Assembly: GCA_040285855.1 (NCBI GenBank)
Contig: JAUFOQ010000004.1
Coordinates: forward strand, 1,736,001-1,800,000
Direction of reading: 5' to 3'
Length of the DNA: 64,000 nucleotides
DNA from: Eukaryota sp. GEM-RC1
Taxonomy: Eukaryota
Numbering within the stretch: the stretch's first letter is position 1; the number at the start of each line of letters is the position of its first letter. A model generated the notes under the pieces. That model saw nothing but the letters and a program-made list of their open reading frames with translations, made no database searches and was not told the DNA's origin. Both the position numbers and the translations under genes were made by a program. Below are positions 11,570-64,000 of the stretch, piece after piece.

Positions 11570-12560
11570 GGCCAAAAAAAAGACTCTAAAGTTACTTGTT
11601 TAAAATGTGGACACGGTCCCTTCGTTGGAAGTGCGCAGCGAATGAAACAACATCTATAAGGACCTGCTGGGCTGGCATTAAAGCATGTACCAATTCGCCC
11701 ACTGATCTGCCTCCACTCCCAAGAAAGCGACAATCTCTTGCAAAATCTACTTTTCCCGCAACATCCCCTCCCCAAAAGAAGACAGGCCCTCTAGACCAAT
11801 TGTTTGACATCAAAGGCAAGAATGATCTTGATACCGTGATTTCTGCGGTCTTTTACAGATATGGAATTCCATTTAATGTTGCCCGCTCTGCCGAGTATCA
11901 CGATATGGTACAAGCTCTAATCAATTATCGACTTCCATACGTGCCTCCATCGTATGACGAATTAGGAACAACGTTATTGGAAGCAATGTGTTTCTCGTTT
12001 CAACAGCGTCTTTCTTCTTTTTTAGCAAATATTTATGAAACCGGTTGCTCCCTTGTGTTAGATGAGTGGACTGATCCTTGTGGTCGACCACTTGTGAACT
12101 TTATAATTGTGACACCTGATGGCGCAATGTTTTACGATTGTATTAATACTTTCGGTAAATCTAAAGACGGAAAGGCTATTTTTCTAGAAATTCAAAAAGT
12201 TATTGACATAATAAACCCAGCTTACATCACTAATGTTGTAACTGACAATGCTGGGCCAATGGTCAGTGCTGGTAGACTGATTGAAAAGAAATTTCGACGA
12301 ATTGTATGGACTCGCTGCCATTCGCACTGTGTAGATCTACTTCTGGAGATCTACTACAGAAGATGGAGCCCATTAAGACAATCATTTCTGATTCTAGAAA
12401 GCTGGTACAGTTCATTAAAAACCAGTCATCAGTATATGCTATTTTCAAAAATTGTCTCCTAATAAGACATTTTTGACTCCCGCTGCTACACGATTTGCGA
12501 CAAATTACAGTCTTGTGAAAAGGTATATTTTATCCACATTTACCCACTTTTGGAGACATT
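11570..12560 (+). pseudogene. hAT transposase (BED finger plus DUF659-type catalytic region), frameshifted and truncated
   Basis: VTCLKCGH...RMKQHL, FYRYGIPFNVA, PPSYDELGTTLL, GCSLVLDEWTD, VVTDNA, WTRCHSHCVDLLLE, PAATRFATN. Confidence 0.85.
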
Positions 12561-24000: not shown

Positions 24001-25833
24001 ATTCAAGTGAGCTCTTCTTTGATGATTCAGTAGACATCACATCATCAAGTTTTAGTTTGATCACTTTCAACAGTGAGTTTCAGACTGATTTTGACTATTC
24101 TCATATGGATCTTTTAGATTTATCTTGTTCTACTTTCAAATCAGCTTCCCTCACTGAAATAGTTGTTGATTTATTCTATTGTTTTAATTGTCAAGTACTA
24201 GGAAACTCGTCTTTGTTAATCGAATCACATTCTCAAATTAATTCTGGAAATTTCTCATCTCCGTTAATTATTATCGAAACTGCTAAGGATGTTTCATTCA
24301 CTGGAATAGTTCGATTTTTAAACTCAATTGATTTATTTAGTGATGTTACTCTTGATGACGTGACAGTTTTTGCTTCCTCCTTTTCAGTTTCTTCCAATTT
24401 AGTTCTCCTCTTCAAGAATCACTCAACATTGACAATATATGATACCCTTTTACTCAATGGAGGAAAGTTCCAGACCGATATCACTTCATCTACTTCATTT
24501 ACTTCCAGTCAACTCTCTTGTTTTGGGGGATGATGTCACTTCTTTAACCAGTCACAAACTTATTGTCAATGGTTACTTTGATATTAGAGATGGTACCCTT
24601 GATTTAGATGAGTTGAGTGTACTAGAGTTTGTAAACGTCACTAACGTTACACTGGAAAATAGTCGTTATGTTCCTGTTATGCCTTCAAACCTTTTCTTAC
24701 ACTATAATTGGCAGTCCTCTTTCAATAGAATTGACCTTTCAGGTCTCCACAACTCCAATGCAATAACAATTCGAGGACCTACGTGGAAACAAGATGAATT
24801 TGGAGGTTATCTTGATGTTGTTCCTGGTAATACTCTCCATATTCGAAATATTCCTGGGGTAACCGGTTGGAGAGGAGCTTCAATTTCTTTGTGGGTGTAC
24901 TGGGAAGAAGCAGGAATGGGGTTTGGATGGGGTCAGTCTCCTTGTAGGTTTTACATTCGTAGAGGTACTCTTGTATGGGGTAGTGGTAGCAGGACTATTT
25001 CTCTACCCTTTCAGCAATGGTTTCACTTGGTAATTGTTTTGACTAATGCACAAGCACGGGTTCATGTTAATGGCGTGCATCGGTGGACTGTTTCTCCATG
25101 GTCTGAATACTATAATTGCTCTTTTGGTGTTCAAACCTTTTTCCCTCTTTCTGAGATCACTAACACAAACGATCACTCTTTTAGAGGAAGAATTCGTGCA
25201 GTGCAGATATTTAGAAAAACTTTAACACTTTCTGAGATTCAGGATTTGGATTATACTTCTTCAACTGGTTTCCATGGTAATGGTAAACTTTCTCTGGTTA
25301 ATTCAGACGTGCAATTATCATCATCAGAGTTTGAATTCACAACAATTTCTCTAAGTGCATCAACTCTTCAATCAAGCGACGTCATCTTGGACAATTTAAA
25401 AACTCTTGAACTCTTTGATTCGTCAGTTCTTTTCACTGAAGAAACCAAGATTCTTTCTGGTGATTTAAATATCAATCTTAATTCAAGTCAGCTCTACTAT
25501 GATGCTTCAGTTGAGATCTCATCACGTGTTAGTTTAATCGCAATCAACAGTCATTTTCAAAACGATGTTGACTTTTCAAATTTTCATCTTTTAGATTTAT
25601 CCTTTTCAACTTTTGAGTCCGCTTTCTATACTCAAGTCAATGTTGATTTATTCTATTGTTTTAATTGTCAACTACTAGGCAACTCGTCGTTGGTAATAGA
25701 ATTTGATTGTGAAGTTAATTCTGCAAATTTCTCATTCCAATTAAAATTTCTTGAATCATTAAAGCATCGTACGTGTACATTGTCATTGAATCTCACAGAA
25801 GCTTTTTTTTCCACACAAAATACTGAGAGCTAA
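21031..25833 (+). CDS. Large surface protein with two LamG/ConA-like domains and beta-helix-like repeats (frameshifted)
   Basis: Two copies of IDLSG.H.S..I.I.GP.W..D.FGGY.D....ISLWVYW...WFHLVIV...VNGV...F.G..RAVQIFRKTLT (~21700-22280 and ~24680-25260), each followed by a similar repeat block. Confidence 0.65.
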
Positions 25834-30232: not shown

Positions 30233-32698
30233 ATGATATTATACAACAAGTATAAAGAGGTCGAAGACTAGTTGACAGAAAGCACTAGTACAACTTGTAG
30301 TAGATCGAATTGAGATCTTTTCATGAATTTGGCTCTTCTGGTTTGTGTTATAACTTTTTCTTTTCCAACTTCCTGGCCTGAACGGTCATACTCTTGACTT
30401 GCATTATCATCCTTACTTTCATGTCTGAACATTTCATTGACTTTTGATTCTTTATTATTCATAACATCTCGTAATCGTTTCACATGCTTGTGTCTTGGAT
30501 TTGATGAGTTTATTAATTCAGGACGCTGAGCTTTTCTACCATGGGTAGCTTCGAATATATTGAAGCTCTTCACTCGATGTCATCTTTTCGATCACAGTTC
30601 CGTTTTCATCTTAATATGTGTTTTGCTGATGAAATCTGTTGGTTCTTTATGTCAATTGTCACAGTTGCCAACATTGTCTTGTCAATACTTCATCTCTATT
30701 TTGTCATTCATAAACCAGCATTTTATTGTCTTGATACTGCCACTAACTAGTGTTCATTTCAAATTTAGGCCACAATTCGATGCTGTTTTTGTATATAAAC
30801 TACATTTAATACTACATGTCATACTTGTCATGAAACCAGGTGGTACAAAAACAACCTTTAGTTGTTCAAAGTCCTAACAACAACAAGTCTTATCAGATTT
30901 TATAAGTATATCAGATCATATGAGTTCTTTGATATGTACAGTCTGTCTGCAATTCGATATTGTTCATTTTGTTGATTGTTGTACTTGTCTATAACATATG
31001 TGGTGGTCATATTTTTTAATGCTCCTACTCTTTCAAGAACGTAAAAAGTACTGAAAAACAATTTAAAGTCGTTCTTGACCCTTGAAAATTTTCAGCTATT
31101 GCTAGTATTTTGAACACTTCGAATGATCCACTGAAGGACGGTGAAACAAAGTACGTACAACAAGTTGCTGTATTGAATTCACGAAGACACAAAAGATCGA
31201 CTTTCAGCCCGCGGATTTTTTTGTACGGACATTTTGGTTTTTCTACAAAGGACAGTTTTTTAAAATTTGTTTGAATTGTTGTGTTCATAATTTGGTAAGA
31301 AGTTTAACAGACCGTACTGGAAAAGTTAATTTGCATTTCGAATTTTTGGTCAATGTATAGACATCTTGTTCATGTTGTTTGGTGTTAACTACTTTTCGGA
31401 ATTGGGTACTTCGTTTGATAGTTTGTTTTAATCGTCTTTATTTATTTGTTGTTCTCTTGTTGTGTGTGTTTTTTGCACGTATATCCGCTGTACAAAAAAG
31501 TGATAACACGATGGACAATTAATACTTCAAGTGTTCACGCGTTTCGTCTTCTTTCAGTTTTCGTAAGTTTTGGTGTAACAGGTTTTGAATTGGTAAATGA
31601 TTTTGACCTATTGTGTCGTTCTAATGTGAAAGACTCAATCTGTTCTATGTACATTCATCGTAATATTTAGAAATTACTTCTGACTTAGGTAAAACAAACG
31701 CCTTCTAATTACCACTGTAAATAGAGAACGGGGATACATGCACTTAGTTGATGTTGTCCCAGTTGTTTAAGAAGAACTTCTTGTGAATTTTCCTTCTTAT
31801 ATTTTCTAAATTAGTGTTTCTTTTTTCAAGTCATCCCCAACATTTTAAATAATCACACATTTTCCAGTCCATATCTTGGAGGTTTGGGATTTACATCTTT
31901 TAAATGGTGGACTAAAGCAGCTTTCATTGGTGGTGGAAGAAATTGTTTATTCGAGTTTTGTAATCGAAATCCATCAAGAACTTCTCTTCTTGAAAGTACT
32001 TGCAGCTTTCTGAGCTCAATCCATTGTCATTGTTATTCATCAGTTAAAGCAGCTTTCATTGGTGGTGGTAAGAAGTTTTTTCCAGTTCACTAATCGATAT
32101 CCTTCATGAACTGCAGTCCTTGAGAAAGTACTCGCAGCTCCTATCTCAATCATCTCCGTTGTGGAGTATGAAATCTATTTCCCGGGTTATAGTCATCTTG
32201 TTTTCCTGTTGATATCAAAGAAATTCCATGTTGAAACATTTTGTCTTTACAATGTGCTTTAAAGAAACTCCAAAAATATTTCCAGAAAAAAAATGACTAC
32301 GCTTGTAGACCACCATTAGAAATTTTTACAAACTCGAAAGACGAACAAAAGCAGTGCAATCTAGGGAGTTTAGTTCACATCATTTGTAAAAAGTGTATTA
32401 ATAATTCATGTCCTTAACAATCGTTTCCATTACAATTTTCAATCTTTTCCAATTAGCTAGAACTGAACAATAACTATTCGATGAGTGTTACAAAAGTCTT
32501 ATAGATGAATGAAAACTGTTTTTAACACAGAAAACAAAAATATTGAATAAATACCATACATAACAAAACAGTGACAGATTTAGCATAACCAGTTCTGGCT
32601 GGTTTGTTTGATGATACAGATGTGACAAATCGTTTGGAAATAGCCGTGGTGATGTCATATTTGCTGGTCTTGACGGATCTTTCATTATTGCTGATGTT

Positions 32699-38665: not shown

Positions 38666-39885
38666 ATGTGTCTAAAGTTGGAACGTTCTTCCGGAAGAAC
38701 TTCTTCTGCTCTCCCAATACATATCTCAACTCAACATCTCCACTCCATTCAATCCATAGATAGGAAAACATGGTTAGAAGGGGTTGTTTGTGCTTCTTTG
38801 TTTTGCTCCTACGTGTTGTTTCCATCATCTCAATGGAAACGGAATCTCGCAGAAGATGGAGATGTTGAGACTAATCCCGGCCCACCCCATACTCAATCAT
38901 GTTTCTTCAATGTTTGTCATTGTTATAACAACAATCCCTTTACTGTTGTAACCTCTACGGACAGAGTTCTAAACATGTTCCAGTTCATACATGACAATGC
39001 TTTGGCAATTGTCCAGTATACTGATGAGCCTCAAACTCCTTATTTCGTCGTCATATACAACGGTAAAGTACAACATCACTTGCCACTCGCATATATTTTG
39101 CCAAGTGTACAGTTTACCAAAATCGAGTTTCTCAAACAAACTGACAGATCAGCTGTTAAAGAAATAATTTTTGTAGAATCTGAAGTAGTCCGTCGTATCA
39201 CTGCAGATATTGCACACATGGCCATTGGCAATCCGGAATCTGATGCATTGCCATCATCAGTATTAAAGCAGTTGTATGACTGCATTTGTTTCTTGTCTTT
39301 CAAACAAACAGCACATCAAGAAACAACTCAAATATCACTTGAATCACCTGATTTCTGTATTATTTCGTCTTCAGACAGTGAAAGCAATCAATCTGACAAT
39401 TACTGCTAATTGTCAGCAGTCGTAAATTTTCTTTTTCATGTCAACATTTTGTTAGACGTGTTTAATACGACGCTATTGAACTCAATTCATCACAAAACGT
39501 GACTTCTGCATTATGCCATTGTTTTGACAACATTACTAATGAATTTCATCTTCTACATCGTTCAGTTTCAGCATTCTTTCCTGAGTTTTTATCTGGGAAA
39601 CAGGATCCATTTAATTTTTTAGCAAAACTGTCGTACCTTCTTGATATAGAATTTCGTGCAACATTGGAACATGCTAACAGTAATGACATGGAGAAGTTTG
39701 GTGCATTGTCTCAAGACATTGAATCTGAAAAAATCCTAAAGGAACTAAAACATTCAAGTGTTGTTAACATTTTTTCTTTCAAGGTTGAAACAAAGGACAA
39801 ATTCTTACAACACATGAAAGTTTGTCTAATCTATCGATTTATCTTTTTGAAAAAAGGTTGTGTGAAGTTAACAATGAACTTTATA
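38666..39885 (+). pseudogene. Decayed ORF: leader, 2A peptide, unknown domain, USP (C19) deubiquitinase-like N-terminal part
   Basis: RNLAEDGDVETNPGP (38840-38884); Cys-box-like SNQSDNYC*LSAVVNFLFH; F.SGKQDPFNFL resembling the QQD motif; cut off by GAGCCGGCT repeats. Confidence 0.55.
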
Positions 39886-40248
39886 GATGGGAGCCGGCTC
39901 AAAATTTGATCACGGCTCAGCCGCAGGCATTAGCCAGCCGGCTGCGGCTTACAGCACATATTAGCCAGCTCAAGCCGGCTGAAGCCGGCTCAGCCTCATC
40001 GAGTTTTGTTTCGAGTATTTGGGCAGTTGCTTAAAAGTTTTATTGACTTGTTGGTTGATATATCAGTAAAATGATACAAAACCATTGTTAATGACAACTA
40101 CACCGAGTTTCAGAACGACACAATACATACACCATTGATCAGTATATTCCAGTTTTCACAGATTTTACATGTGACTTATTTTTGGGATTATCACTTATAA
40201 ACTTGACGTTGATCAGTTAGTAATTACTTGAATCTTGAAATCTTTGAA

Positions 40249-43096
40249 TGTTAATGACATGAATTCTGAATACATATTTACACCAATGTTTTATATATAT
40301 AGCAATGCACACTCATCCAACACTATATAAGTTTATTCGATAACCCATAGTCATTTGTATTAGTATCATAAACTAAAAAAAATTCCTACAATAATCTCTC
40401 AAATATTTTACATAAAACTCCACAGTAGTTTTGACATTTTCGAGTGGACATTTCTGACTCTTACTGATTCATGTTGTGGCTGATTTAGTTTACTTGGTTC
40501 AGATAGTTTAATTTAATGTAAATAAGGAAAATACAACCGTTAAGAATTCTGAAGTCAAAAAGTCATCTTATATGTTAGTCTGATGACAAATTGAAGAAAT
40601 TTGGAACCTCGCCTTGGGGTTTTTGGATAGTCTGAAGATTTGTTTGGTGTTGACAGTTATCTAGTGATTCGGAAAAGTGAGCTATCAATTTCCAGAAATG
40701 CGCCAAATGCGCCAAATGCGCGCATTTTGACGCATTTTGACGCCTTTAACGCATTTGGGATTTTGTGATCTTGTGCATTTTAACTTTGAGATTTTTTTCG
40801 AATTGTTTTTAATGTGCTTCTGTATAAGTCTCTATATACAATTACAGTGATGTTGATCTCAAAACAGTGTTTTGCAGTACCTCTTACGTTGGACAAATGT
40901 AAAGTTGTATTTTATACAATTCAATGAACATTCTTTTGATATCACAATGTGAATTGGTTTAAAATCTGTGAAGTTAGTGGGATTCAACCAAAACCTTTGA
41001 TCAAAAGTCTGTTTTAACCATTTATACGAACAATGTAAATCGATACAAAACCATAAACGGTTAATATTGTATAAAATACTGAATGAAATATAGTTTAAAG
41101 ACCATTGAATTGTATGTTCCATAAGGAAGAAGAAAGAAGAACAAGTGACAAATTAACTACATGCTTATCAGCAAGCTTTACAACAAGTTTCATATATGTT
41201 TTGATGGTACGGGAACGACTTTCTTGTTCAGAAGTATTTCTGAGTTTGAAGATTGAGTAGGACATGGAAAATTCTGGTATAGACTTTATTACAGATTTCG
41301 TTCCAGACAAGTGAATTTACATTCATTACTTCATTACTTATTGGAATTAATTCATTTTCTTCTCGTCTACGAATATACCTGGCTTTATAGCAAATGAATT
41401 CAGAAGAGAACTAACGAAGTCAATGAGTTTGGTTATACGATTGACACTCTTAAAGACTTCTTAAGTAATCACTAATGGTAACGGATGATGTTATAACTAA
41501 TAACATTAGTTAGAGTTGTTTTGATGTTTTGACACTCTTGTACTGTAGTATCTAGACTGGGATGACTGAAACATTTCATTTTCCTCTATCCACAAATGTT
41601 GGTTGTTTTACATTCTAACAGACACTCTGCTCCGTACAAGGCTCCTCTTTTGGCGCAATCCAATTTTGAGGCGGAATCCCCTGCTTGGATTCTATCTCCG
41701 TTGAGTCGATATATAAATAGCTTTTTCTATGTTGTGAAAAAACTTCCATCTCTGCTGTTGTATGTACTCTACTTCTATTCGTGTGTTATCCCTTCCCGTC
41801 CTCCGTTCCCAAAAAACCTCACCGCCGACGGTGACATTGAGTCCAATCCCGGTCCGTTGTCCAAAGACTCCCTAGAGTATCTGAATCCTGGCCAATGGAT
41901 AGATGATGACGCCCTTTCTGAATACTCAAAACACCTATTCAAAGAAGCAAACCTCGATCGGGAATGCTATGTCATTACTCCAGGTGAGATGTGGTCAGAT
42001 TTTTTCACTGATGGATACTGCCAAAATAAGATTGATGACGCCCGGGAGAGAAGCACCAGATACTTCGATGTTCCTCTCAACGATGCTATGAATACAACAG
42101 GTGGATCTGGAGGAGTTCATTGGGGTCTAATGGTAATAGACTATGCGGAAACAACGCGATATTTGTGGATCCAATTGTTGGTTCTTCTTGTCTAAGTTCT
42201 GTTGTAGATGAATTATGTAGGAAAGTAACATTGAACGTACAGAGGCTCAACATCACCAAGACACAGACTCCTAATGACTGTGGTATTTATGTTATTGGTT
42301 ATATTCAAAAATTTGTTGAACTCATTTCAAGGGATCGCATCAATCTATCTTTGATCTCTATTGAACGTGCTTTAATCCAAGTTAACAATGAACTTAATGC
42401 TGCAGATCTCCGTAAACAGATTCAAAAATTGTTTACTTATGTTGACGATCAATTGTTCATCAAATATTCCAAAATACTTGTGGAATCAACAGGTTTAATC
42501 TTTTATGACTATGTAATTGGGCCAACTGATTTATATCCGTTATTATATGGTGACCAACCCTATAATAAATATCCATTTTCGGATTTTTTGACGCAGAAAT
42601 TCTTCCAATGTAGTGAAAAGAAACACCAACAAATGCTACTTATTCCTGTCAATAGTGCAATGTGTGATCTTACTGCTGATGGTCGTCATTGGGGTTTAAT
42701 TATTCTGATCATTTCATCTCCTACAAGTCATATTTTATTCATTGATCCGACCTACGTTGAGGATGATTATGCCAGAGAATTTCCTGCTAACCAAACGCCA
42801 GTTGCACCAACTTCCTCCAATTTATTTTTAATTGTTTCACAAATTTATTCAGTGTTGTCATTCTGTGGAACCAGAAATATAGAATTTATTCCATCAAATA
42901 TCAAACATACTCTAACTGACTCTGGTTTTTGTGTTCTCGAATACATTGAACTTTTAATGAATTTACATCAATCTGTGGTCATAAGGTGGACTGATGTTAA
43001 AGAACTGCTGGGTAATACCACTATTGCTGTTCACGAGTCTCGAAGTAAAATTTTGGAACATTTTGAAACTTTTAGTCCTGTTGAGTTGTCGCATGT
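40249..43096 (+). repeat. Arm 1 of a long near-identical inverted duplication (partner 55077-58036)
   Basis: Reverse-complement match from TGTTAATGACATGAAT (40249 / 58036) through the leader, 2A and both protease domains. Confidence 0.95.
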
Positions 43097-46000
43097 GCCA
43101 AAAATGCCAGCCGTCCCTCCAAAACGTTTGTCCAGTTCAAGTGTTTCAACCGGTGCCACTCCTCAAACTAAAGTTTCTGCCATTAACTTATTGCCACCGA
43201 CTGTATCAAAACCTGTTCCTGCGTCTCTCACAGGTTTGCGTCTAGCTAGCACTAAAGCATCCACTGGTTTAAGCACCAAAAAAAGTAAACCCAAACTTGC
43301 ATCACCAAGAGGTTCACCTCTATCTAAACAAAAGGAATCCAGAACAACCAACTCCCTTGTATCAACTGGTATCACTCCTCAAACTAACATTTCTGTGACC
43401 ACCGTATCTGAACCCGTTTCTACGTCTCCAACTCCCAAACCATCAATTACAGAACAAGAACCCAATCAATCACAAAAGTTCTGTTTAATTGAGATAAAAA
43501 GTGTGATCTCAGATCCTGAACGCTTGAATCTTAAAGTCGTTCGAGTTAAACAGGAGCCAGAAGTAGACGAAGAGATTGAATCAACTTCAGAAGGTATTCC
43601 ACAAATTCAGGATACTACTTTTGAAATTCAGCGTGATCCAGATTTAGATCCAATTGTGTCAATCTCTCTTCAGTTTACCCATGATAAATTTGCAAATGAA
43701 ACTCACCTATTCACCCATAATGTTTCAGAAATTTCACTTCCTAATTGTGTAGTTCACACGTTTACAACTGAAAAATCAATGTTAACAAATTTCATTACAT
43801 TTTTAAATCTTAACAAGCCCATTTTGTTAATAAGTTATGATTGGCATTTAGATACTTTTCCGTTTTTAGTATCACGATGTAAGAAATTAGAAATTGACAT
43901 TGATTATACAATTGATGATTACATTTCTTCTCTTCCAACTTGGTTCCACAGATGGTGCAAACCAACGGAAATTGGTCCTTTTATTCCCTTGACTTGAATT
44001 CAGTATTGAAGAAGTTGTATGTCTTTAGAAGAGGTCGGTTTTTGGAAAACGTGACCACAATTATGATGGACATGAATAATCATTCAAGAACATTTGAAAG
44101 TTTTGACAATGAAAATATCTTCCTTAAGAGAATATTTCATTCTTTAGACAATCCTCTAGTGTCAGATGAAGAAATGAAGGTTAAAACTGAAGAACGTCAA
44201 AACAAAGCGCCATCTGTGAAACTAAAACCCAAGGCTGTTATGGAGATTCGATTGTTAGCAGAATTAACAAAACTTAATGAACTTTGGGAATCTAAAACTT
44301 CGAGAGACACTTCGAGAACCACTTTGTTATTGAACTCAATCAATAAGTTGTTTCTGATACAATACCTTCTCTTTGATCTTCTCGATGAAAAAAGCAAAAA
44401 TTAAGAGAACGACCACCAATGAAGACAGTGAAGAAACGATTAGATAATGTTGTATCAAAGACTAAAGCCAATTGGATGGAGTCTTGTGCTAAGAGAGCTC
44501 ATCAAGTCAGAGTTCGTGGTACTCATATGTTGAAACATTTTTTCGTTACTAAGTTTCACAACTCTCTAATTTTCGACAAGGTCAAAGAGATACTACCTCC
44601 CACTGTTAAAGAAGAAATTGAAACAGACACTGAAGTTTCAGACACTGAACAAACAGAAATTTTAAGTGAAGAGTTTGTGCCTCAACAATTAGAAGAAGAA
44701 ACTGAATTGCCTGTGACTTCAGACCCTGATTTTGGTTTGGATCGTACAATTGAATCCGAAATTTCAGAAGAAGACAGCCAAATTTTAGAAGAAGACAGTA
44801 TTGAAAATGAAACTGGTGAACCTGAACTTGACCTTTTTACTAAAATTCAAACTACCAAATTTGAATTACCAGACTGGGGAGCTTACTTTAAGTTGGGTCC
44901 AATGGGACAACTGTTGGCCATGATGTGGATTCCAAATCACCAATTTTTCAACAGTACTGATCATATTAAAACTGTGGAAAACTCGTTAAAAAACATCATT
45001 TCTAATGTTAAAACAAAACCTACAAAGAAGGAGTTCGCCCAACACTTCCTATCAAACTACATCCCTCTGTTAGAAACTGCTGGTGAAATGGTTGGTAAAG
45101 ATAGGATCGTGTTTCCAAGTGGACTATAATTGGCTAATCCTCTCGGTTACGTTGCAACCGAAATTATTGCTAATTATAAGAACAACATGAGCCAACACCT
45201 TCATGAGTATGTTTTTCAAGTCTTTAACTTGGTTACTCAAAAGAAAGAGAGAATGGAAGCTCTTACTGACAAAACCCAAAGACAAGAACTCTGTCAAAGG
45301 ATTAATGAAGTTAGAGAATTGATCATTAATGGTGAAATTTCCAAAATTAATTTTGATGACAAGCAAGTTTTTACCAATCCGGAATCTCACTTGAGTATAT
45401 TATTCTTCAATTATTTGTTTAATTATTTTGAAGGAAAGATGGAGAAAACGATCTACTATGCCGAAAAGAGTGATCCGTTATACTTTTTAAGTCATGCATT
45501 ATATTTGAACCGTCTCATTGAAGACTATTGTCCTGGTGTAAGAGCAAACAATCCTTTCCCGTTGTCTAAATCTTTAATTCCAAATCATATCAGGTTCGAT
45601 ACGCAATGGTTTCATACAATATTTCGCAGGGATATTCCCAATACTGTCAACTATAATGATGTACGGAAACTTATTTGGAATTCAGTATTTAAACCTCAGG
45701 CTATTCCAGAGTCATTATCCTATGACTTTAAATACACTTCAATTTCGTCAGACGGTTTAAGTTGTAGTTTGTTGATGATGAGGAAAGATTTACTTGATGA
45801 AAATGGAAATGCCCGTGAAAATGTTACAGCAGTTAATCTTGCTTCAAATGAGCGTTATATTGATTCCTTAAGTGAAGATGAAATTGAAGAACTGAATTTA
45901 AAATCTAAGAGAATTGTTGCTTTTGACCCCAACCAACATGATCTCATGTATTGTGCAAGTTTAAAAACTGATGAGGAAGAGACGTGTGAGAAATTTGAAG

Positions 46001-47654
46001 TTGATGAAACAAAACAATTGATAGAAAATTGGAATGACTAATGCTTGTGTTACAGAAGTTGATCTTGCTTCCAATGAACAATCTGTTGATTCCTCAGACG
46101 AGAAAGATGATTCCTCAGGTGAGAAAGAAATTGAGCCCAAGCCAGTTACCCCAACTAGAAAAAGAAAGATTGCTCCATTATCTTCTAAGAAAAGGGGAAG
46201 TTTGAAAAAAATGAAAAAACAATTAAATGATTGGAAGCAAGACACTAACCCACAACCTGTAAAGTGGAAAAGGCGTGACAAATGGAAGGTGTTCCGATAC
46301 ACTGCTGGGGAGAGAAAGGCAGATATTAACAAATCTAGATGGAAACCAAGAAAAAAATCAGCCATCACAGTTCCCAAAAAAATTGACAAAGAAACAAAAA
46401 AAGAAAAAAAGCTAAAAAGGAACGAAAGAAAAAAAGAAATTTCAAAAAACTTGAAAGAAATCGCTGTAACAAAAACATTGTCGAATTGACTGAAAGTGAA
46501 CGTTTACAGATGTACTCAACTGAGTTTGAGAAGAGTGTGTGGAATGGTCAAAAGTACTGGATTCCTACAGTTCTGATACTCCAAGAAGAAAATCATGTAA
46601 ATTGGAAGAATTTTCAAGGTACATGGTTAACAATGAAGTTTTCTGTGCATTAATGAGATCAACCACAACTGGAAAAGCAACTGCTGAAGGATTACCTAAA
46701 AAGAAAGGACCATCTAAGAAACTACCTAAGACAGGACCAACTCAACAAATACCTGCTGCAGCTGAAGGTCTTTATGAAGAGAAATTTTTTAGACGTAGAC
46801 GCCTTACCCAATATTCAAGAAAAGAACGAAGTGAACAAAACTTGGTCCACAGATTAGCTCTCCAATATGGTGATCCAGATGAAGTCGTTGTTGGTTTTGG
46901 GGATTGGAATGACACTCAATTCCGAAGAAGAAGGGGTAAGGCAAGTACAGTAAAAGGCGCTACTCTTCGAAAATTACTAAGAAAATTTGGATTTAAAGTT
47001 TTCTTAGTTGATGAATTTATGACAAGCAAATGTTGCTCTGCTTGTGCTGCTGAAAACCAGGAAGGTATCTGTTCCAATCCTGACTTTGTCAAAGTCACTG
47101 ATCCTAATTGGAAGAAGAAGTTGCAGAATGAGGAGAAGAAATTGAAAAAAGAAATTATGGAACACAATCAATTAGACAATGTTGTGAAACGTAATTTTGA
47201 TGATGAATGGACCAAACAGTTGCCATTCATGAAAGAAAGATTAAAGAGCAAAAAAGTCTCACCATGGGGCTTAGTCCAATGTGCTAAATGTCATGTCCTC
47301 TGGAATAGAGACTTCAACTCTGCTATTAACATTTTAAACATTGTAAATGGAATTATCCAAGGTCAAGGTAGACCTGCTGTCCTCGAGAGACCAAAATCTC
47401 AAACAATAACTATCGAGGATGGTGGGATTACAGATCAGGTTCCCAAGAAGATAAAGAGTGTGAGTAAGTGTCAGTTTTGTCATATGGAAGGCCATACAAC
47501 GGCAAAGTGTCCTCAAAGACCTGTGCCTCCTAAAAGTCCTCGTACATGTACGATATGTAGACAACCAGGACATGATAGAAGAAATTGCCCAAGTAAGGCC
47601 CAGAAAGATGTACCCAAAGACTCACAAGTAGAGAATGAAGAACCGGAATCCTGA
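41596..47654 (+). CDS. Fanzor1-type RNA-guided nuclease polyprotein, copy 1 (2A, 2x SENP8/Ulp1-like, PolB-exo-like, Fanzor, 2x CCHC); several frameshifts and one in-frame TAA at 45127
   Basis: DIESNPGP (41833-41856); HWGL..D..DCG; SSDGLSCS; RuvC-I IVAFDPN (D 45925); VGFGDW; RuvC-II LVDEFMTSKCCSAC (E 47013); CAKC..WNRDFNSAINI (D 47310). Junctions can be bridged by single-base indels and are collinear with copy 2. Confidence 0.85.
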
Positions 47655-47753
47655 ATCTTATAAGTTAGCTCGTCCTAAAAGGCTTGCAAATGAGTGGCAC
47701 AATGTGTCAAACTGTGGTGATAGTGCATTATGCATTTGAAATGAAATCCACAG
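47652..47753 (+). ncRNA. Putative Fanzor omegaRNA scaffold, copy 1
   Basis: Non-coding blocks after the stop are conserved with copy 2 (AAGTTAGCTCGTC, AATGAG, AAACTGTG, TTATGCATTTG). Hairpins are predicted by eye, and similarity ends abruptly at CAG. Confidence 0.6.
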
Positions 47754-49570: not shown

Positions 49571-50752
49571 TTAAGTAAAACAAGTATGATGTAAAGTATT
49601 TGGGATATTATATCTACCTTTGATAATGTACAATAAACAGTTACTCCCATAACCCACAGCACTACCACCCTTGCTGTTTTCATATTCAATAGAATCAATC
49701 AGCACATGTGAGTTTAGATCGATAAGGACAACCTTGGCAATTGGTTGAGAACTAGTCACATCGGTATAAGAAATCGCCATCAAATTTGACGGATACACGA
49801 CATGAGATTCGTAATTTGCTTTTGGACTCAATGTAAAAACCAGTTCGACATCTTCAAAACCATGCCCGGTTAATTGTATTTTATACAGAGAAAGTGACAC
49901 TGAATTAGATGTCGTTGAACCAACAGCAAAAACAACAGACCCGTCGTTAAGCACACACGTGAACAAAACTTGATGAAACGTGGTGGGAATCGAGAAATTT
50001 TTCACAAAGACTTCTCTATTGGAATCATGGAATCCTGCAATGAAGATTTTCTTAGGGTACTTCATAATGTTTGAGAATGTAAAGAAAATCATACCTGATG
50101 CCATATTCGTAGACACAGCTCTTATTCCTGGATAACGTATAGAGTATAACAGATGAAGATCCTTGTTGATAACATCTAACTGATTAGAGTTGTATCTGAT
50201 GTACCCTAACCGCGTTGGATGAAACGTGGCATAACCAAGAGATGTACTTTTATGTAAAAGTTTGCCTTCAAAGTCGAATCTGACCATCAGATTTTGATCT
50301 GAACAGAGAAGACCCCGATCATCGGAAACAGCGATGCCTGGAAGAGACACAGGAAAGCGGAGAACTTCTGATGATAGGTCAGCTGAAAATAGATGAAAGT
50401 GTCGAATAAAAGTTTCATCAGGAAAAGCTAGTACGGCGATGGTATTAGAGACGCTGCTCATGTAGAGTTGTGAATATGCAAAACGGATTGGTTTCGTTTG
50501 ACGAAGTAGCTGCCCCGTTAAAAGATCAACAGACATCATTCCAACATTAGTGGAGAAATATACTAGTTGAGGTGTGACAAAAGGCGGTGATGACCAAACA
50601 GAACGGTCATACGAAATGGACCAATCTATTCCCGCTGATAATGAAATGTTAGCGTAATTTGTTCTTTCAGGTGTAAGATCATGACATATTGCACAGGATA
50701 CAGAAGCAATGTAAAGTGAGAAACAGATCCAGAGATACAACACGAAGAGCAT
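49571..50752 (-). CDS. Secreted 393-aa protein, possibly a beta-propeller
   Basis: Intact ORF with a signal peptide and a PQQ-like segment (WSSPP....VYF....MSVDLLTGQL). Confidence 0.65.
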   Translation of the reverse strand: MLFVLYLWICFSLYIASVSCAICHDLTPERTNYANISLSAGIDWSISYDRSVWSSPPFVTPQLVYFSTNVGMMSVDLLTGQLLRQTKPIRFAYSQLYMSSVSNTIAVLAFPDETFIRHFHLFSADLSSEVLRFPVSLPGIAVSDDRGLLCSDQNLMVRFDFEGKLLHKSTSLGYATFHPTRLGYIRYNSNQLDVINKDLHLLYSIRYPGIRAVSTNMASGMIFFTFSNIMKYPKKIFIAGFHDSNREVFVKNFSIPTTFHQVLFTCVLNDGSVVFAVGSTTSNSVSLSLYKIQLTGHGFEDVELVFTLSPKANYESHVVYPSNLMAISYTDVTSSQPIAKVVLIDLNSHVLIDSIEYENSKGGSAVGYGSNCLLYIIKGRYNIPNTLHHTCFT

Positions 50753-50783
50753 TTATTTGAAGATTTACTTCCGCTTCAATGAA

Positions 50784-50936
50784 CTGGGAATGCATTCCAA
50801 ATGCATAAGGGCATAACCCTTCACATTTTCATGATCTCATATAGAGCAAAACTCACAGTTTGAACAAATGTCTAAATTATTAGACAAATATCCTCATTCG
50901 CAAAGTCTTTTAAGACGAGCTAACTTCATAGATTCA
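50784..50936 (-). ncRNA. Putative Fanzor omegaRNA scaffold, copy 2
   Basis: Same conserved blocks as copy 1 with longer inserts, e.g. hairpin TGTCTAA/TTAGACA at 50869-50886; ends ...TTCCCAG. Confidence 0.6.
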
Positions 50937-53900
50937 AGATTCCTGATCTTTCTGGTTTACGAGGGAGTCCTTGGGTACATCTTTCTTAGGCTTATTTGGA
51001 CAAGTTGCTCTGTTATGCCCAGGTTGAAAACATATACCACACTTTTTAGGACCTCTGACAGTTGTTGGAGGACGTTTTGCCTTACCCTTACCCTTACTCA
51101 CAGTCTTTTTCTTAGGAATCTGATCTGTATTCCCGCCATCCACGACAGGTGTTGTTTGAGATTTTGGTCTCTCGAGGATGGCAGGTCTACCTTGACCTTG
51201 AATGGTTCCATTTACAATATTGTAAATATTGATAGCAGAATTGAAGTCTCTATTCCAGAAGACATGACATTTAGCACATTCAACTAAGCCCCATGGTGAG
51301 ACTTTGTTGTTCTTCAATCTCTCTTTCGATAATGGCAACTGTTTGGTCCATTCATCATCAAAGTTACGCTCCACAATATTGTCTAATTGATTTTGTTCCA
51401 TAATTTCCTTTTTTAATTCTTTCTCTTCCTTATGTAACTTCTTCTTCCAATGAGGATCAGTGACTTTTATCCTTTCAGGATTGGAACAGATACCTTCGTC
51501 GTTTCTGGAAACACACGCAGAGCAACATTTGCGGGTCTTAAATTCATCAACTAGGAACACTTTAAATCCAAATTTTCTCAATAATTTCCGAATTGAAGCA
51601 CCTTTTTTCAAGTCGATGCTTTACCTCTTCTTCGACGAAAAGCAGTGTCGTTCCAGTCTCCATACCCAACAACGACTTCATCTGGGTTACCAAACTGGAG
51701 AGAAAATCTGTGAAGCATGTGTTTTTCACTTCGCTCCTTTCTTGAATATTGTGTTAGACGATTCCGTCTAAAACACTTTTCTTCATAAATTCCTTCAGTA
51801 TTTCTTTGATCAGTAGTGGGTGATCGTAGTAAAGAACAGGCAATTTCTTTACCAAGAACAAAAGCAGAATACTGAGTCAATTCACAAGATTTACTACCTG
51901 GCGAGTTAGAGCCCCATTGATCTAAAATTTGTTGCCCATTTATGTCAATGCGTCTGCCATCTGGACTGTGAATAAATTGGGTAGAATATTGTTGTAACCG
52001 TTCGGATTCAGATAAACGGTAGAGATTCTATCGTCTTATTTTCTTCTCCAGCTTCCTCTTCTTTCTATTAGCTCTTTTTCTTTCCTTCCTTGTTTTTTTC
52101 TTTTCCATGGAGACTTTTTTAATATCGGCATTGCGCTCCCCAGCAGTGTATCTGAATACTTTCCAATTATCACGATTTTTCAACTTGACAGTTGTTGGTT
52201 TGTCAATAGTTGGTGCGTCTTTCCAATCCTTCAATTCCTTTTTCAATTTTTTCAAACTTCCTTTTTTCTTTGATGACTTTGGAGAAATCTTTCTTCTTCT
52301 GAGTTTGGTTGATGTATCGAAACCTTCGATTTCCTTTTCCTCCTTAGATTTTAAAGAAGCACAATACATCAAATCATGCTGATTAGGATCAATAGCAACA
52401 ATTCTTTTGGATTTCAAATTTAAGTTTTGAATTTCCGTGGAACTCAAAGAATCAATGTACCTGTCGGTACTTGTGTAGTCGACTGCTTTCAATTTCTTAT
52501 GAGGATTTCCTCTCCCATCAAGCAGATCTTTCCGCATCATCATTAAACTACAGCTAACTCCATCTGTAGAAATAGAACTGTATTTGAAGTCATGAGACAA
52601 TGACTTTGGAAGACACTTTGGTTTCAAAACTGAGTGCCAAATATCTTTTCGAACTTCATCAATGTTACCTTTAATTTCTGATGCATAAACTTCTTTAAAC
52701 CATGAAGTATCCAACCTAATATGATTAGGAATCAATGATTTTGTTAGAGGAAAAGGATTATTGGCAGTAACACCAGTACAAGAGTCTTCAACAAGACGTT
52801 TCAAATACACTGCATGACTTAAGAATTTCAAAGGATCCACTTTTTCAGCATAATAGATTGTTTTTTCCATTTTACCTTCAAAAAAAGTAAACAAATAGTT
52901 AAAAAATAGTAAACTCAGTCTAGAATTGGGATCAGGAAACACTTCAACGTCTTGAAAATTAATTTTTCAAATTTCCCCATTAATGATCAACTGTCTGACT
53001 TCATTAAGCTTTGTACACAACTCTTGTCGTTTATTCTTATCAGTAAGCTTGTTAAGTCTATCTTTTTCAGGGTAACCAAATTAAATACTTGAAAAACATA
53101 TTCGTGAAAGTGTTCACTCATGTTAGTCTTGTAATTCGTTATAATTTCAGTAGCCATGTAATGCAATATACGAGATAAACGATGACTACTGGGAAACACA
53201 ATCCTATCAAGTCCAACAGATTCAGCAGCTAGTTCTAAACGAGGAATGTAATGAAACAGGAAGTGTTGAGCAAGCTGATTTTGAGTTGAGGCCTCATTTG
53301 TTTCAGAAATTATGTTTGTTAACGATTCTTGTACAGTCTTAATATGATTCTGGTTGTTTACAAGTTTTTCCTCCCTAATCGTCATCATAAATAACACTTG
53401 TTCCATTGATTTCAACGTAAAAAAATTCTTCCAGTCTGGCAATTCAATTTTATTAATTTGATTTTTAGTCCAAAGGTCAGGTTTAGGTTCACCACTCGCA
53501 TCTTCAATATTTTCTAATTTAACGGGAGGAGCAGTAGCATCGATAGACTCTGAATGTACATCTGTTTCTTCTTCAGTTGACTCATCTGTATCAGAATTCA
53601 TTTTTTCCTTAACAGTTACATTTGGAACAGTAGCAGGCAGTAACTTCTGAATGTAACCTAAAATACCAGAATGGTGAAAATTATGAACAAAAAAATGTTT
53701 CAAAAAGAGACTACTACGGACTCTTACTTGATGAGCTCTCTTAACAGGAGATTCAATCACTCTAACCTTACAACATTGTCTAGTCGTTTCTTAACCACTT
53801 TCATTGGTGACTTTGACCGTAATGTTTGCTTTTTGGGATCCAATAGGTCAGCCAACAAGTACTCAATCAGAGGTAATTGTTGAATTGAGTTCATCAACAA

Positions 53901-56690
53901 TAGCGGTCTTGTCGATTCCTTGGCCCAAAGTTCATTTACTTTCTCCAAATTTCTTATAAATTTCTTTTTAATCTTGTCGGCCTTCACTTTGGGATTGTCT
54001 GGAACTAAAACATTAATACTGTCAATTATGCCATGCAAGTTTTGAACATTATTGACCAATTGAACTTCATCAGGATCAGAGTCATGATTAAGTTCTTCCA
54101 AGCGTTTGACAGTTTCATTTTCAGAAAAATTATTCATTTCAAGGAAAATTTGAACAACATTTTCCAAAAAACGGCCACCAGTAAAGACATAAAAATTCTT
54201 CAATACAGCATTCAAATCGAGACTAAAAAACGGACCAAAAGTTGTTTCCTTACACCGTTTATTGAACCAAAAGGAAATGTAGGGTTTAAATTCTGGAAAA
54301 GTAAACGTTGTATTGATTTTGAGGACTTGACAACGTGATACAAGAAAGGGAAATGTATCTAAATGAAAATCATAACTCACAAACAATCGTGGACAATGTT
54401 GAGTAATGAAGGAAATGAAGTTTTTAAGCATACTGGATTCACTGTTTGAAATATGTAAAGTACACAAATCCAAGTTTGTAGTATCAAAATTGCCATGAAA
54501 AAATATATTTTTTTCATTAAACTCATTGTGATCAATGATCTGGATGGAAATTGATACAATCAGATCAACAGAAGAATCACGTTTAACTTCTAATTGATTT
54601 TCAAATTCACCTTCAAAAGTTTCAATGTCATCATCATCTTGAACAAGTTGAACATTTCTACCATTAATTTTTTTCTTTTTTGGCAAAATCACTTTGAACA
54701 TGGATTAAACAAAAGTTGGCATATTATTCCATAATAAAGGGGATTTAACAAAGTCTTGAATTTTTATTTCTTGTTGTTCGATAGGCTCTGGATTTCTTCT
54801 TGAATTGGCGATGGATACGACATAATGGAGGCCTTAATTTTGGGTGGTAATTCAGATGGTGGTAATTCAGATGATTCCAATGTGGACATACGGCGGTGAG
54901 TCTTTCGTATGGGAGTGGCACCAGTTGATACAAGGGAACTGGTAGTTCTAAATTTATTTCGTTTAATTAAAGGTGAACCTCGTGGTGATGGAATATCAGA
55001 AATTTTGGCCTTACTTTTTTTAGTGCTTAAACCAGTAGATGTTTTAGACGTTTACCTGAGATTGGTGACGCAGAAACATGCGACAACTCAACAGGACTAA
55101 AAGTTTCAAAATGTTCCAAAATTTTACTTCCAGACTCATGAACATCAATAGTGGTGCTACACAGCAGTTCTTTAACATCAGTCCACCTTATGACCACAGA
55201 TTGATCTAAATTCATTAAAAGTTCAATGTATTCGAGAACACAAAAACCAGAGTCAGTTAGAGTATGTTTGATATTTGATGGAATAAACCGTATATCTCTG
55301 ATTTCAAGGACTGATGAAACTGAATAAATTTGTGACACAATTGAAAATAAATTGGAGGAAGTTGGTGCAACTGGCGTTTGGTTAGCAGGAAATTCTCTGG
55401 CATAATCATCCTCAATGTAAGTCGGATCAATGAATAAAATATGACTTGTATGAGATGAAATGATCAGAATAATTAAACCCCAATGACGACCATCAGCAGT
55501 AAGATCACATATTGCACTATTGTCAGGAACAAGTAGCATTTGTTGGTGTTTCTTTTGACTACATTGAAAGAATTTCTGTGTCAAAAAATATGAAAATGGA
55601 TATTAATCATAGAGTTGGTCACCATATAATAACGGATATAAATCATTTGGCCTAATTACATAGTCATAAAAGATTAAACCTTTTGATACCACAAGTATTT
55701 TGGAATATTTGATGAACAATTGATCGTCAACATAAGTAAACAATTTCTGAATCTGTTTACGGAGATCTGCAGCATTAAGTTCATTGTTAACTTGGATTAA
55801 AGCACGTTCAATAGAGATCAAAGATAGATTGATGCGATCCCTTGAAATGAGTTCAACAAATTTTTGAATATAACCAATAACATAAATACCACAGTCATTA
55901 GGAGTCTGTGTCTTGGTGATGTTGAGCCTCTGTACGTTCAATGTTACTTTCCTACATAATTCATCTACAACAGAACTTAGACAAGAAGAACCAACAATTG
56001 GATCCACAAATATCGCGTTGTTTCCGCATAGTCTATTACCATTAGACCCCAATGAACTCCTCCAGATCCACCTGTTGTATTCATAGCATCGTTGAGAGGA
56101 ACAGCGAAGTATCTGGTGCTTCTCTCCCGGGCGTCATCAATCTTATTTTGGCAGTATCCATCAGTGAAAAAATCTGACCACATCTCACCTGGAGTAATGA
56201 CATAGCATTCCCAATCGAGGTTTGCTTCTTTGAATAGGTGTTTTGAGTATTCAGAAAGGGCGTCATCATCTATCCATTGGCCAGGATTCAGATACTCTAG
56301 GGAGTCTTTGGACAACGGACCGGGATTGGACTCAATGTCACCGTCGGCGGCGAGGTTTTTTGGGAACGGAGGACGGGAAGGGATAACACACGAATAGAAG
56401 TAGAGTACATACAACAGCAGAGATGGAAGTTTTTTCACAACATAGAAAAAGCTATTTATATATCGACTCAACGGAGATAGAATCCAAGCAGGGGATTCCG
56501 CCTCGTATTGAGTCAAATACAAACAACAAGATGGCAGCATGACATCAACGGGAGAGGAGAACAAGCTATCCATATATCGACTCAATGGAGATAGAATCCA
56601 AGCAGGGGATTCCGCCTCAAAATTGGATTGCGCCAAAAGAGGAGCCTTGTACGGAGCAGAGTGTCTGTTAGAATGTAAAACAACCAACAT
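50934..56690 (-). CDS. Fanzor1-type polyprotein, copy 2 (same architecture, one CCHC); frameshifts and an in-frame TAA at 55603
   Basis: DIESNPGP (within 56316-56360); protease and exo-like domains; STDGVSCS; IVAIDPN; VGYGDW; LVDEFKTRKCCSAC; CAKC..WNRDFNSAINI; CGICFQPGHNRATC. Confidence 0.85.
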
Positions 56691-58036
56691 TTGTGGATAG
56701 AGGAAAATGAAATGTTTCAGTCATCCCAGTCTAGATACTACAGTACAAGAGTGTCAAAACATCAAAACAACTCTAACTAATGTTATTAGTTATAACATCA
56801 TCCGTTACCATTAGTGATTACTTAAGAAGTCTTTAAGAGTGTCAATCGTATAACCAAACTCATTGACTTCGTTAGTTCTCTTCTGAATTCATTTGCTATA
56901 AAGCCAGGTATATTCGTAGACGAGAAGAAAATGAATTAATTCCAATAAGTAATGAAGTAATGAATGTAAATTCACTTGTCTGGAACGAAATCTGTAATAA
57001 AGTCTATACCAGAATTTTCCATGTCCTACTCAATCTTCAAACTCAGAAATACTTCTGAACAAGAAAGTCGTTCCCGTACCATCAAAACATATATGAAACT
57101 TGTTGTAAAGCTTGCTGATAAGCATGTAGTTAATTTGTCACTTGTTCTTCTTTCTTCTTCCTTATGGAACATACAATTCAATGGTCTTTAAACTATATTT
57201 CATTCAGTATTTTATACAATATTAACCGTTTATGGTTTTGTATCGATTTACATTGTTCGTATAAATGGTTAAAACAGACTTTTGATCAAAGGTTTTGGTT
57301 GAATCCCACTAACTTCACAGATTTTAAACCAATTCACATTGTGATATCAAAAGAATGTTCATTGAATTGTATAAAATACAACTTTACATTTGTCCAACGT
57401 AAGAGGTACTGCAAAACACTGTTTTGAGATCAACATCACTGTAATTGTATATAGAGACTTATACAGAAGCACATTAAAAACAATTCGAAAAAAATCTCAA
57501 AGTTAAAATGCACAAGATCACAAAATCCCAAATGCGTTAAAGGCGTCAAATGCGTCAAAATGCGCGCATTTGGCGCATTTGGCGCATTTCTGGAAATTGA
57601 TAGCTCACTTTTCCGAATCACTAGATAACTGTCAACACCAAACAAATCTTCAGACTATCCAAAAACCCCAAGGCGAGGTTCCAAATTTCTTCAATTTGTC
57701 ATCAGACTAACATATAAGATGACTTTTTGACTTCAGAATTCTTAACGGTTGTATTTTCCTTATTTACATTAAATTAAACTATCTGAACCAAGTAAACTAA
57801 ATCAGCCACAACATGAATCAGTAAGAGTCAGAAATGTCCACTCGAAAATGTCAAAACTACTGTGGAGTTTTATGTAAAATATTTGAGAGATTATTGTAGG
57901 AATTTTTTTTAGTTTATGATACTAATACAAATGACTATGGGTTATCGAATAAACTTATATAGTGTTGGATGAGTGTGCATTGCTATATATATAAAACATT
58001 GGTGTAAATATGTATTCAGAATTCATGTCATTAACA
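55077..58036 (-). repeat. Arm 2 of the inverted duplication (partner 40249-43096)
   Basis: Direct reverse-complement match; carries an extra 114-bp unit in the leader. Confidence 0.95.
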
Positions 58037-58289
58037 ATCGTATTCATTACATTTTTCAATACTTTTGAATTAGCTGGATCTGAACTATAAGTATTCGATG
58101 AGTGTTACAAAAGTCATACACTCCGATGAAAACCCTTAACACAGAAGACAGAAATAATGAATTAATGACGTGTATAACTAAACAGTGACAGAGTTAGCAT
58201 TGATTTTATCATTTTCAACAACTTTTTATATTTTTCAAAAATACGGAAACATTCAGACAGATAACTCACTCAGTCAAATTAATTAGGAT

Positions 58290-60441: not shown

Positions 60442-61470
60442 TTACCTCTTCTCTTCTTTCGAGCTCCTAGTTCTCTTTGCTACAGGTGTCTTAACTTTGG
60501 AAGACGTCTTAGGAGTACTCTTACTACCGGAGGTACGTTTAAGCTTAGTGTTGTTATTACTAGACCTGTTTCTATTGTTACGAAATAAATCTAAATTGTC
60601 TAATTTTACAAAGTCACTATACGCTTTGGTGTTCTTGATGTCCTTGATGGGAACTGACGAAGTATCACCACCAAACCAAAGTACAGTGCAGAATTCACCA
60701 TCGGGTGTATCAAACCTATCTAGGATCTTAACCACGATGTGTTCTTCAGAATCCCCAGAAGCAATTGCTCTGTGGAGATCATGATCAGCAGGTAGATCTG
60801 ATTGAAAGATCTTACATTGATGAATGCTAGTCTTACTAACATATCCAGTGATCAGATTCTTTAATGAAACAGAAGATTTTGAATCAACTGAGACAACTAG
60901 AAAAGGTCCAGTGTAGTTTCCATGGAGCTTACTAGTTTTGGCGACCTTTAACACAAGATCTCCAATCTTAAATGATTGACTAGTGTTAAACTTCTTCTTA
61001 GGCTTGAGTACTGATTGACGATCCTCTGCCTCTTCTCTTTTTTTTCGTTAAACGTTCTAGTTTCATTTTAATGTCGTCAATAAACGAAACATTCTTTGTT
61101 GATTTCTCAACAGCATCTAGTAAACCACTAGGATCTGCACCAGGACTTATGTCACTACCAAACATCAGTTCGTAAGGAGTATGCCCAGTTATTGAACTCT
61201 TTGTTGCGTTGATCTGCAACTGTACAGTTGGAATGTACGTTGACCAATTGTCATAATCATTGAAGTCCACAAGGAGACGACGTAGGCTTTGCAGAACGTC
61301 TCTGTGACGTCGTTCCACCAGTCCATTACTCTGGGAGAAATGAGGAATCGAACGACTTACTTCAATCGCCAGTAGGTTACATATTGCCTCGAAAATAGCA
61401 TTGGCAAACTCCGTACCATTATCACTATGGATACAAAACGGTATTCCAAAGATAGCAATCATTATTGGAA
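60442..61470 (-). pseudogene. Ty3/gypsy integrase C-terminal part with GPY/F and chromo-like domain
   Basis: FGIP..IHSDNGTEF, SQSNGLVERRHR, TGHTPYELMFG, KLHGNYTGPF, EEHIVVKILD...VLWFG. Confidence 0.85.
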
Positions 61471-63968: not shown

Positions 63969-64000
63969 CTCCTTGTGGGAAGTGGGGCTTCTATCCTCAG

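Follow-up and report, generated by a model that had tools for sequence, protein, structure and literature searches.

Non-LTR retrotransposons, including L1Tc, Ingi, CR1, L2, Crack, and Rex1, encode polyproteins with an N-terminal 2A (StopGo) peptide directly before the first enzyme domain, according to the available portions of three reports (PMC3708506; PMC3894237; bioRxiv 10.64898/2026.06.17.732966). Some 2A-bearing ORF2p proteins of these elements contain Josephin or OTU deubiquitinase domains, as stated in the accessible part of the last report (bioRxiv 10.64898/2026.06.17.732966). The role of 2A peptides in cellular mobile elements is presented as an open question in the accessible portions of the literature, and the family described here, which has the same N-terminal arrangement, is a natural experiment on it.

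In the available text of Li et al. 2026 (PMC12846837), one class of viral StopGo peptides has the form WV(R/K)DLTx[acidic]G, with D at p12 and S at p15. A member of this DLTxDG class that was tested skipped almost 100%, and activity was lost when characteristic residues were changed (PMC12846837). The leucine at p7 of the FMDV 2A is a key tunnel contact. A core 2A motif alone is often inactive.

Fanzor1 nucleases such as SpuFz1 are multi-copy and possess a DPN motif, a shifted Glu, a C4 finger, and an RD motif, as given in the available portions of four papers (PMC10432273, PMC10711439, PMC10530073, and PMC3627910). The locus analyzed here shares these features, and its first protease shares the fold and the His-Asp-Cys triad of NEDP1/SENP8 and other CE-clan (Ulp1-family) proteases.

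StopGo Motifs in the Window

The window, which is the whole stretch of 64,000 nucleotides of Eukaryota sp. GEM-RC1 that was analyzed, contains two Fanzor copies that face each other. An earlier note on this DNA had placed a canonical 2A motif at the head of both Fanzor polyproteins. The motif is indeed present in copy 1 at 41812-41856 on the forward strand (KNLTADGDIESNPGP, DLTxDG class with N for D at p6) and in copy 2 at 56316-56360 on the reverse strand (KNLAADGDIESNPGP, N at p6 and A at p8), but neither window copy is an intact polyprotein. The predicted skip site of copy 1 lies between 41853 and 41854.

A third StopGo motif, at 38840-38884 on the forward strand (RNLAEDGDVETNPGP), was overlooked by the earlier note, which reported only two. 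It is located in another frame, within the ORF 38666-39409, and WK stands just before it. In total, D[VI]ExNPGP matches three times in the six frames of the window, with 2.8e-5 matches expected from the six-frame composition. The third motif has 10 residues in common with that of copy 1, six of them encoded by different synonymous codons, which indicates either peptide-level selection or a separate origin. The third motif may have evolved separately from those of the two Fanzor copies. The third motif precedes a 175-aa region unlike the Fanzor-copy proteases, and a near-identical copy is found on another contig (P0022). The region 38666-39906 (+) is possibly a second kind of 2A-led element. 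Past a stop and a frame change, the segment 39394-39906 resembles by eye a ubiquitin-specific protease. This reading was rejected, as it found no support in Pfam, PDB, or Atlas. A closely similar 2A (KDLLADGDIESNPGP) also occurs at 2643-2687 of a contig from a viral collection (L001), in an unrelated frame.

The window also contains other features. A MULE transposase is encoded at 7842-9461 (-), and three tandem related frames, two of them with laminin-G-like domains, lie at 21031-25833 (+). The frame at 11605-12462 (+) is a DUF659 (hAT-like) frame. A gag/integrase-like LTR element was recognized by eye at 60445-63998 (-), and its zinc knuckle was found by Pfam.

Motif Class and Sequence Context

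The motifs share with viral StopGo motif 4, in the portion of PMC12846837 that describes it, an aromatic residue at p3, K or E at p5, and D-L-T-x-D-G followed by D(V/I)ESNPGP. The core D(V/I)ExNPGP is present in the window motifs and intact in 16 of 17 family proteins, and the family also has the upstream D-L-T-x-acidic-G context of this class. Position p6 is D in all 15 non-window family proteins and N in both window ones. Class B 2A (WxxxL/VxxEG(I/V)Ex(N/H)PGP) was not matched, as every motif has D at p12, where the EG(I/V)E core of that class has G.

Residues p3-p11 scored 13-22 bits on the viral DLTxDG frequency table, and only 1-2 of 5,800 background 9-mers, which included one 2A itself, scored that high. 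The table sits directly above the label 'Motif 4' in sheet F of Dataset S1 (PMC12846837) and was recognized by its content in the available part of that file. The family form scored 21.6 bits (74th percentile among simulated class members), the third motif 18.9, copy 1 17.3 (43rd percentile), and copy 2 13.0 (17th percentile); the median of the simulated class members was 18.3. The accessible portion of the viral StopGo dataset contains DLTADGD 10 times and DLTMDGD 8 times, both of them forms found in the family, and the window form NLTADGD 0 times. The viral table gives a frequency of 3.4% for N at p6, found in both window copies, and of 1.7% for A at p8, found in copy 2. The window copies thus carry a rarer form of the motif. 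The StopGo identity proposed earlier is upheld by the core, the DLTxDG context, and the low chance expectation together, and the motif is a DLTxDG-class StopGo signal with predicted skipping activity.

Domain Organization Downstream of the Motif

The domain order past the motif is protease, protease-like domain, linker, exonuclease-like domain, Fanzor1, and zinc knuckles, with a total of ~1,900 codons. Protease 1 of copy 1 (41854-42445, +; end approximate) is a CE-clan (Ulp1/NEDP1-like) domain with His-Asp-Cys, contains a 1-base loss near 42165, and exceeds the cut-off for PF02902. Protease-like domain 2 follows at 42446-43095 (+; bounds approximate) and retains His and Asp, with Ser in place of the catalytic Cys, a replacement found in 3 of 3 proteins checked. 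The protease 1 triad is present in 10 of 17 named family proteins, whereas the others are cut short or, in P0082, have lost the Cys.

It was previously proposed that the first protease domain starts right after the GP. A structural model of the family protein P0044 (pLDDT 71, 9 sequences), in which the leader and the 2A are poorly modelled, agrees with this proposal, as the CE-clan fold begins at residues 44-49 and the skip proline is residue 48. The matches of this model to NEDP1, XopD, and NopD start from residues 40-49 with Z 14.5-15.3, and the NEDP1 match (Z 14.5, rmsd 3.8, 182 aligned) is tied with XopD and NopD. The profile for the domain start was built from the skip site, which makes the coincidence partly one of construction, and the fold search is the independent check.

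A Pro/Ser/Thr linker precedes the exonuclease-like domain of copy 1, which is of the DNA polymerase B type (43482-44390, +; PF03104, E 2e-6) and has frameshifts near 43980 and 44395. Its counterpart in copy 2 is at 53790-54704 (-), and in both copies the domain is joined directly to the N-terminal end of the Fanzor. Thr stands where an archaeal polymerase has the Exo II Asp, so the domain may be inactive. The Fanzor1 nuclease of copy 1 (WED, REC, RuvC, and zinc finger) with its C-terminal zinc knuckles extends over 44389-47654 (+) in a broken frame, with TAA at 45127 and breaks near 46030 and 46490. Copy 2 carries protease 1, protease-like domain 2, the exonuclease-like domain, and a Fanzor1 of a second subfamily in pieces at 50934-56318 (-). 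The best PDB matches of the nuclease were SpuFz1 (E 1.8e-10 and 1.7e-8), PpFz1, and GtFz1. Both copies contain the RuvC D-E-D set with the shifted Glu before the C4 finger and RD, as DPNQ, DEF(M/K)T(S/R)KCCSAC, C..C, and RD. RuvC-I is DPN in place of DPG, as in SpuFz1 itself, and the WED domain has TDG in copy 2 and SDG in copy 1. This Fanzor1 is a predicted RNA-guided nuclease.

Conserved non-coding blocks follow the stop of copy 1 (47655-47750, +) and have a counterpart in copy 2 (50782-50933, -). They are likely the omega-RNA scaffold and the right end of the element. The blocks end in a small hairpin, and in copy 2 they finish ~30-40 bases upstream of the start codon of a gene for 393 aa (49571-50752, -). 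Comparison of only these two sequences revealed no shared structure in the blocks, no terminal inverted repeat was present among the longest pairs listed, and no transposase was seen within the element. A small GC-richer cluster of tandem and inverted repeats in the shared upstream DNA (40696-40756 and 57529-57589) could be promoter or left-end sequence.

Relationship and Decay of the Two Window Copies

The 5' 2.8 kb of the two copies, 40249-43096 and, inverted, 58036-55076, is 97-99.7% identical and includes 1.35 kb of non-coding DNA, whereas the 3' parts are only 72-84% identical where alignable. This inverted block joins two otherwise diverged subfamilies, and subfamilies throughout the family appear to have exchanged the 5' module. 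The block of copy 2 continues into another repeat (58003-58200, like 32385-32586). Both copies have the 1-base loss near 42165 and an N at p6 that is absent from every other named family protein, and for this reason they count once. The earlier note treated them as two cases, but near-identical and decayed copies are one observation.

Each copy contains several frameshifts and in-frame stops, the first of them 0.3 kb past the motif. In copy 1, four frameshifts involve a single base within a homopolymer run, and some of them recur on other contigs. According to the accessible text of PMC11316075, the assembly behind the named relatives is a nanopore R9.4 one that was corrected with short reads, and such one-base homopolymer breaks may therefore be errors. 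Real decay is suggested by the in-frame stops and by a shared block that shows no purifying selection (9 non-synonymous versus 1 synonymous change over 300 codons), and both window copies are probably dead. For the two window subfamilies, dN/dS is 0.18-0.46 in the diverged exonuclease and Fanzor parts.

Three other explanations of the structure of copy 1 were rejected. An intron at the 42165 break, as in prediction P0079, was discarded because a 1-base loss restores the His-Asp spacing of 8 other type I proteins. Programmed -1 frameshifting was discarded because no X XXY YYZ heptamer was visible by eye at the first two breaks. Copy 1 is also not a local chimera, as P0080, P0085, and P0087 have the same layout elsewhere.

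Conservation of the Motif in the Family

The window proteins belong to 90%-identity clusters of 14 and 26 members (by exact look-ups), and dozens of annotated family fragments exist. Every named cluster member listed is from Eukaryota sp. GEM-RC1. The Fanzor linkage of the 2A refers to one species only, and the other copies are known at the protein level as gene predictions. Conservation of the motif in other copies, on which the earlier proposal depended, was confirmed. Among 93 proteins, all 17 stored proteins with the protease 1 start have a 2A 12 residues before the QW motif, a count biased by queries that contained the 2A and escaped by any copy that has no upstream ATG in frame and is annotated from an inner Met (P0048). 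Fifteen of the 17 are from other loci, and 14 of those have an intact NPGP. Recent copying has left many family members with identical 2A peptides.

The motif is in frame with the protease-Fanzor polyprotein in P0041, P0080, and P0085. In P0041, the longest protein (1,098 aa), a single frame runs from the leader and the 2A through both protease domains and the exonuclease-like domain into the first residues of the Fanzor. P0080 and P0085, from the other subfamily, run in frame from the leader through the exonuclease and overlap at 91% with P0031, which reaches RuvC-I. The link from 2A to RuvC is tiled in this way, and no single stored protein spans all of it. Scans for related loci yielded one viral contig, which matched in the 2A alone, and none among the metagenome contigs. 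A search for long proteins with a RuvC part found only 2 Fanzors, both of ordinary size, among 5,778 candidates.

Leaders and Proteases Around the 2A

The leader of copy 1 (type A, 86 aa) begins at the sole in-frame ATG and ends with the glycine of the 2A (41596-41853, +). Its frame is stop-free in 2.3% of shuffles, and the remaining two frames contain stops. The leader of copy 2 (56319-56690, -) is 124 aa long and has one extra in-frame 114-nt unit at 56505-56618. The leader had been described as hydrophobic. A hydrophobic stretch does abut the motif, but it is only moderate (best 19-residue Kyte-Doolittle mean of 1.39) and confined to the residues directly before the motif. This stretch may be the tunnel-binding part of the 2A itself.

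Five leader types occur among the named family proteins, with in-frame tandem units of 38, 33, 27, 27, and 76 aa; the type A 114-nt unit is the only leader repeat seen as DNA, and annotation bias bears on the in-frame lengths of the rest. When the five types and the leader of the third motif were compared in 15 pairs, no pair exceeded shuffles. Leader length varies from 72 to 336 aa and peak hydropathy from 0.84 (type B) to 2.36, with values of 1.39-1.56 for type A, and a conserved N-terminal hydrophobic signal overlapping the 2A, of the dual-targeting type, was absent from them by hydropathy. This variation among unrelated leaders speaks against the localization role that had been suggested for a hydrophobic leader. 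The leaders are found in varied pairings with three protease types and two linkers. Past the GP, no Met occurs until 39-46 residues into the protease, so ribosomes can make a complete protease only by first translating the leader.

Of the 52 matches to P0044 in a full HMMER search, 25 have a 2A and 27 do not. The 2A stands before the protease domain in 21 of the former, and the other four matched through the 2A alone. The 2A-less matches comprise 15 stand-alone NEDP1-like proteins, 5 cut or second domains, and 7 others. The stand-alone homologues are 191-224 aa long, and their domain begins 4-18 residues after Met1; the skip proline occupies the position where free NEDP1-like proteins begin. 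Ten 2A-led protease types, 22-44% identical (median 28%), each begin at the skip proline. The protease types of P0044, P0094, and P0095 are tied to the Fanzor family, those of P0073/P0097 less directly through shared leaders, and no such tie was seen for P0098, P0109/P0113, P0119, P0120, P0124, and P0131. In a quick version of a tree of 59 protease domains, the 2A label required 6 changes, 3 of them forced by strong branches. Unlabelled rows within the main group are second or truncated domains, and P0109/P0113/P0131 are apart from the rest. In the shorter variants P0082, P0094, and P0095, the 2A is followed by just one protease, of another kind, before the linker, and the number of proteases also varies. 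The exchange of leaders and proteases around a fixed 2A is the main pattern of the family, and the earlier note had missed it.

Possible Function of the 2A Motif

The meeting of unrelated leaders and ten divergent proteases at one fixed 2A argues for a surrogate start rather than a signal peptide. From these comparisons, it is fairly likely that the 2A, placed exactly where protease 1 begins, serves as a surrogate start and removes a variable leader. Translation would begin at any in-frame AUG of a changing leader that grows through tandem repeats. The nascent 2A would stall the ribosome at Gly-Pro, the leader would be released, and synthesis of the predicted protease-protease-exonuclease-Fanzor protein would resume at the proline. 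This proline would be the constant first residue of the enzyme, which would carry no leader liable to mis-sort or destabilize it, and some drop-off at the skip step may ration the nuclease.

Alternatively, the 2A could act mainly as a brake, in which drop-off or degradation of the stalled product limits the nuclease and harm to the host, and leader removal is a side effect. Such a role has been proposed for retrotransposon 2As in the accessible literature, and 70% of ORF1p and 59% of ORF2p 2A-like peptides lowered protein abundance in the available part of one study (bioRxiv 10.64898/2026.06.17.732966). The family comprises dozens of annotated fragments, and its DNA nuclease would be a fair target for rationing. 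However, the same portion of that study ties the reduction to leucine-rich upstream stretches, whereas the DLTxDG class here has one Leu, and its tested member skipped almost fully in the accessible data of PMC12846837. Nor would a brake have to lie precisely where the domain begins in each of ten proteases. As the main role it is unlikely, although it is compatible with a surrogate start and both may act. Dual targeting, in which the leader is a signal or membrane anchor that directs the unskipped product to membranes or secretion and the skipped product goes to the nucleus, has a precedent in sea-urchin NLR proteins, according to the available part of the source. Most leaders are moderately hydrophobic before the 2A, and one reaches 2.36. 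The kinship, length, and hydropathy results given above for the leaders oppose this, type B and type A included, and the hydrophobic stretch adjoins the motif and not the N-terminus, where it may belong to the tunnel-binding 2A. Dual targeting is therefore very improbable.

The motif could also be a non-skipping relic that is carried with the protease module by recent copying and recombination. The broken window copies, their shared block with its excess of non-synonymous changes, and the identical 2A peptides of many members agree with this, as do three relatives with a damaged core (NPGR in P0078, T at p13 in P0095, and NLCP in P0106). Against it, the motif was kept while the adjoining proteases fell to the low identities above and the leaders were replaced, family changes in the 2A are at tolerated positions (V/I, p4, p5, and p9), and the dN/dS values of the exonuclease and Fanzor parts are below one half. 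A dead relic may fit the window copies but not the family, for which it is improbable.

The surrogate start can be extended, tentatively, to a polyprotein-like RNA-guided nuclease transposon, a picture that is possible but rather doubtful. The StopGo cassette would capture or expand any leader and free a fixed machine of ~1,900 aa. The NEDP1-like protease would remove NEDD8, SUMO, or ubiquitin from proteins of host defence or repair where the nuclease cuts, or would cleave the polyprotein, and leaders, proteases, and nucleases would be exchanged as modules at the 2A.

Comparison with Known Systems

The survey of viral StopGo motif 4 covers RNA viruses only in its accessible portion (PMC12846837), whereas the motif here is in a nuclear DNA element and has N at p6 in the window copies. 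In contrast to non-LTR retrotransposons, the element has no reverse transcriptase or APE; its payload is Fanzor1, it has a CE-clan protease, and its leaders are swapped tandem repeats. In contrast to NEDP1/SENP8, the protease starts at the 2A proline and not at Met, is fused to a nuclease, and is followed by a second domain without Cys.

The earlier statement that a 2A on a Fanzor is not known to be described stands. No paper joining a 2A to a Fanzor, or describing a protease-exonuclease-Fanzor fusion, was found in a literature search that covered paper listings and main-text passages. The available portions of the Fanzor1 papers (PMC10432273, PMC10711439, PMC10530073, and PMC3627910) contain no mention of such a fusion or of a 2A. 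One Fanzor survey, in its accessible part, drew on proteins of November 2022, that is, before the 2024 genome paper. 2A leaders are already known in retrotransposons, and a 2A leading a Fanzor was not found described.

The element has ~1,900 aa after the skip site, in contrast to the 2.1 kb of the whole SpuFz1 locus in the available description, and differs from other Fanzor1 elements in its two fused CE-protease domains, its PolB exonuclease-like domain, and the lack of a terminal inverted repeat among the longest pairs listed. If the 2A skips, the working N-terminus of such a Fanzor is not its annotated Met. Fanzors are otherwise described as compact, and this family adds predicted translational recoding and a protease-exonuclease fusion.
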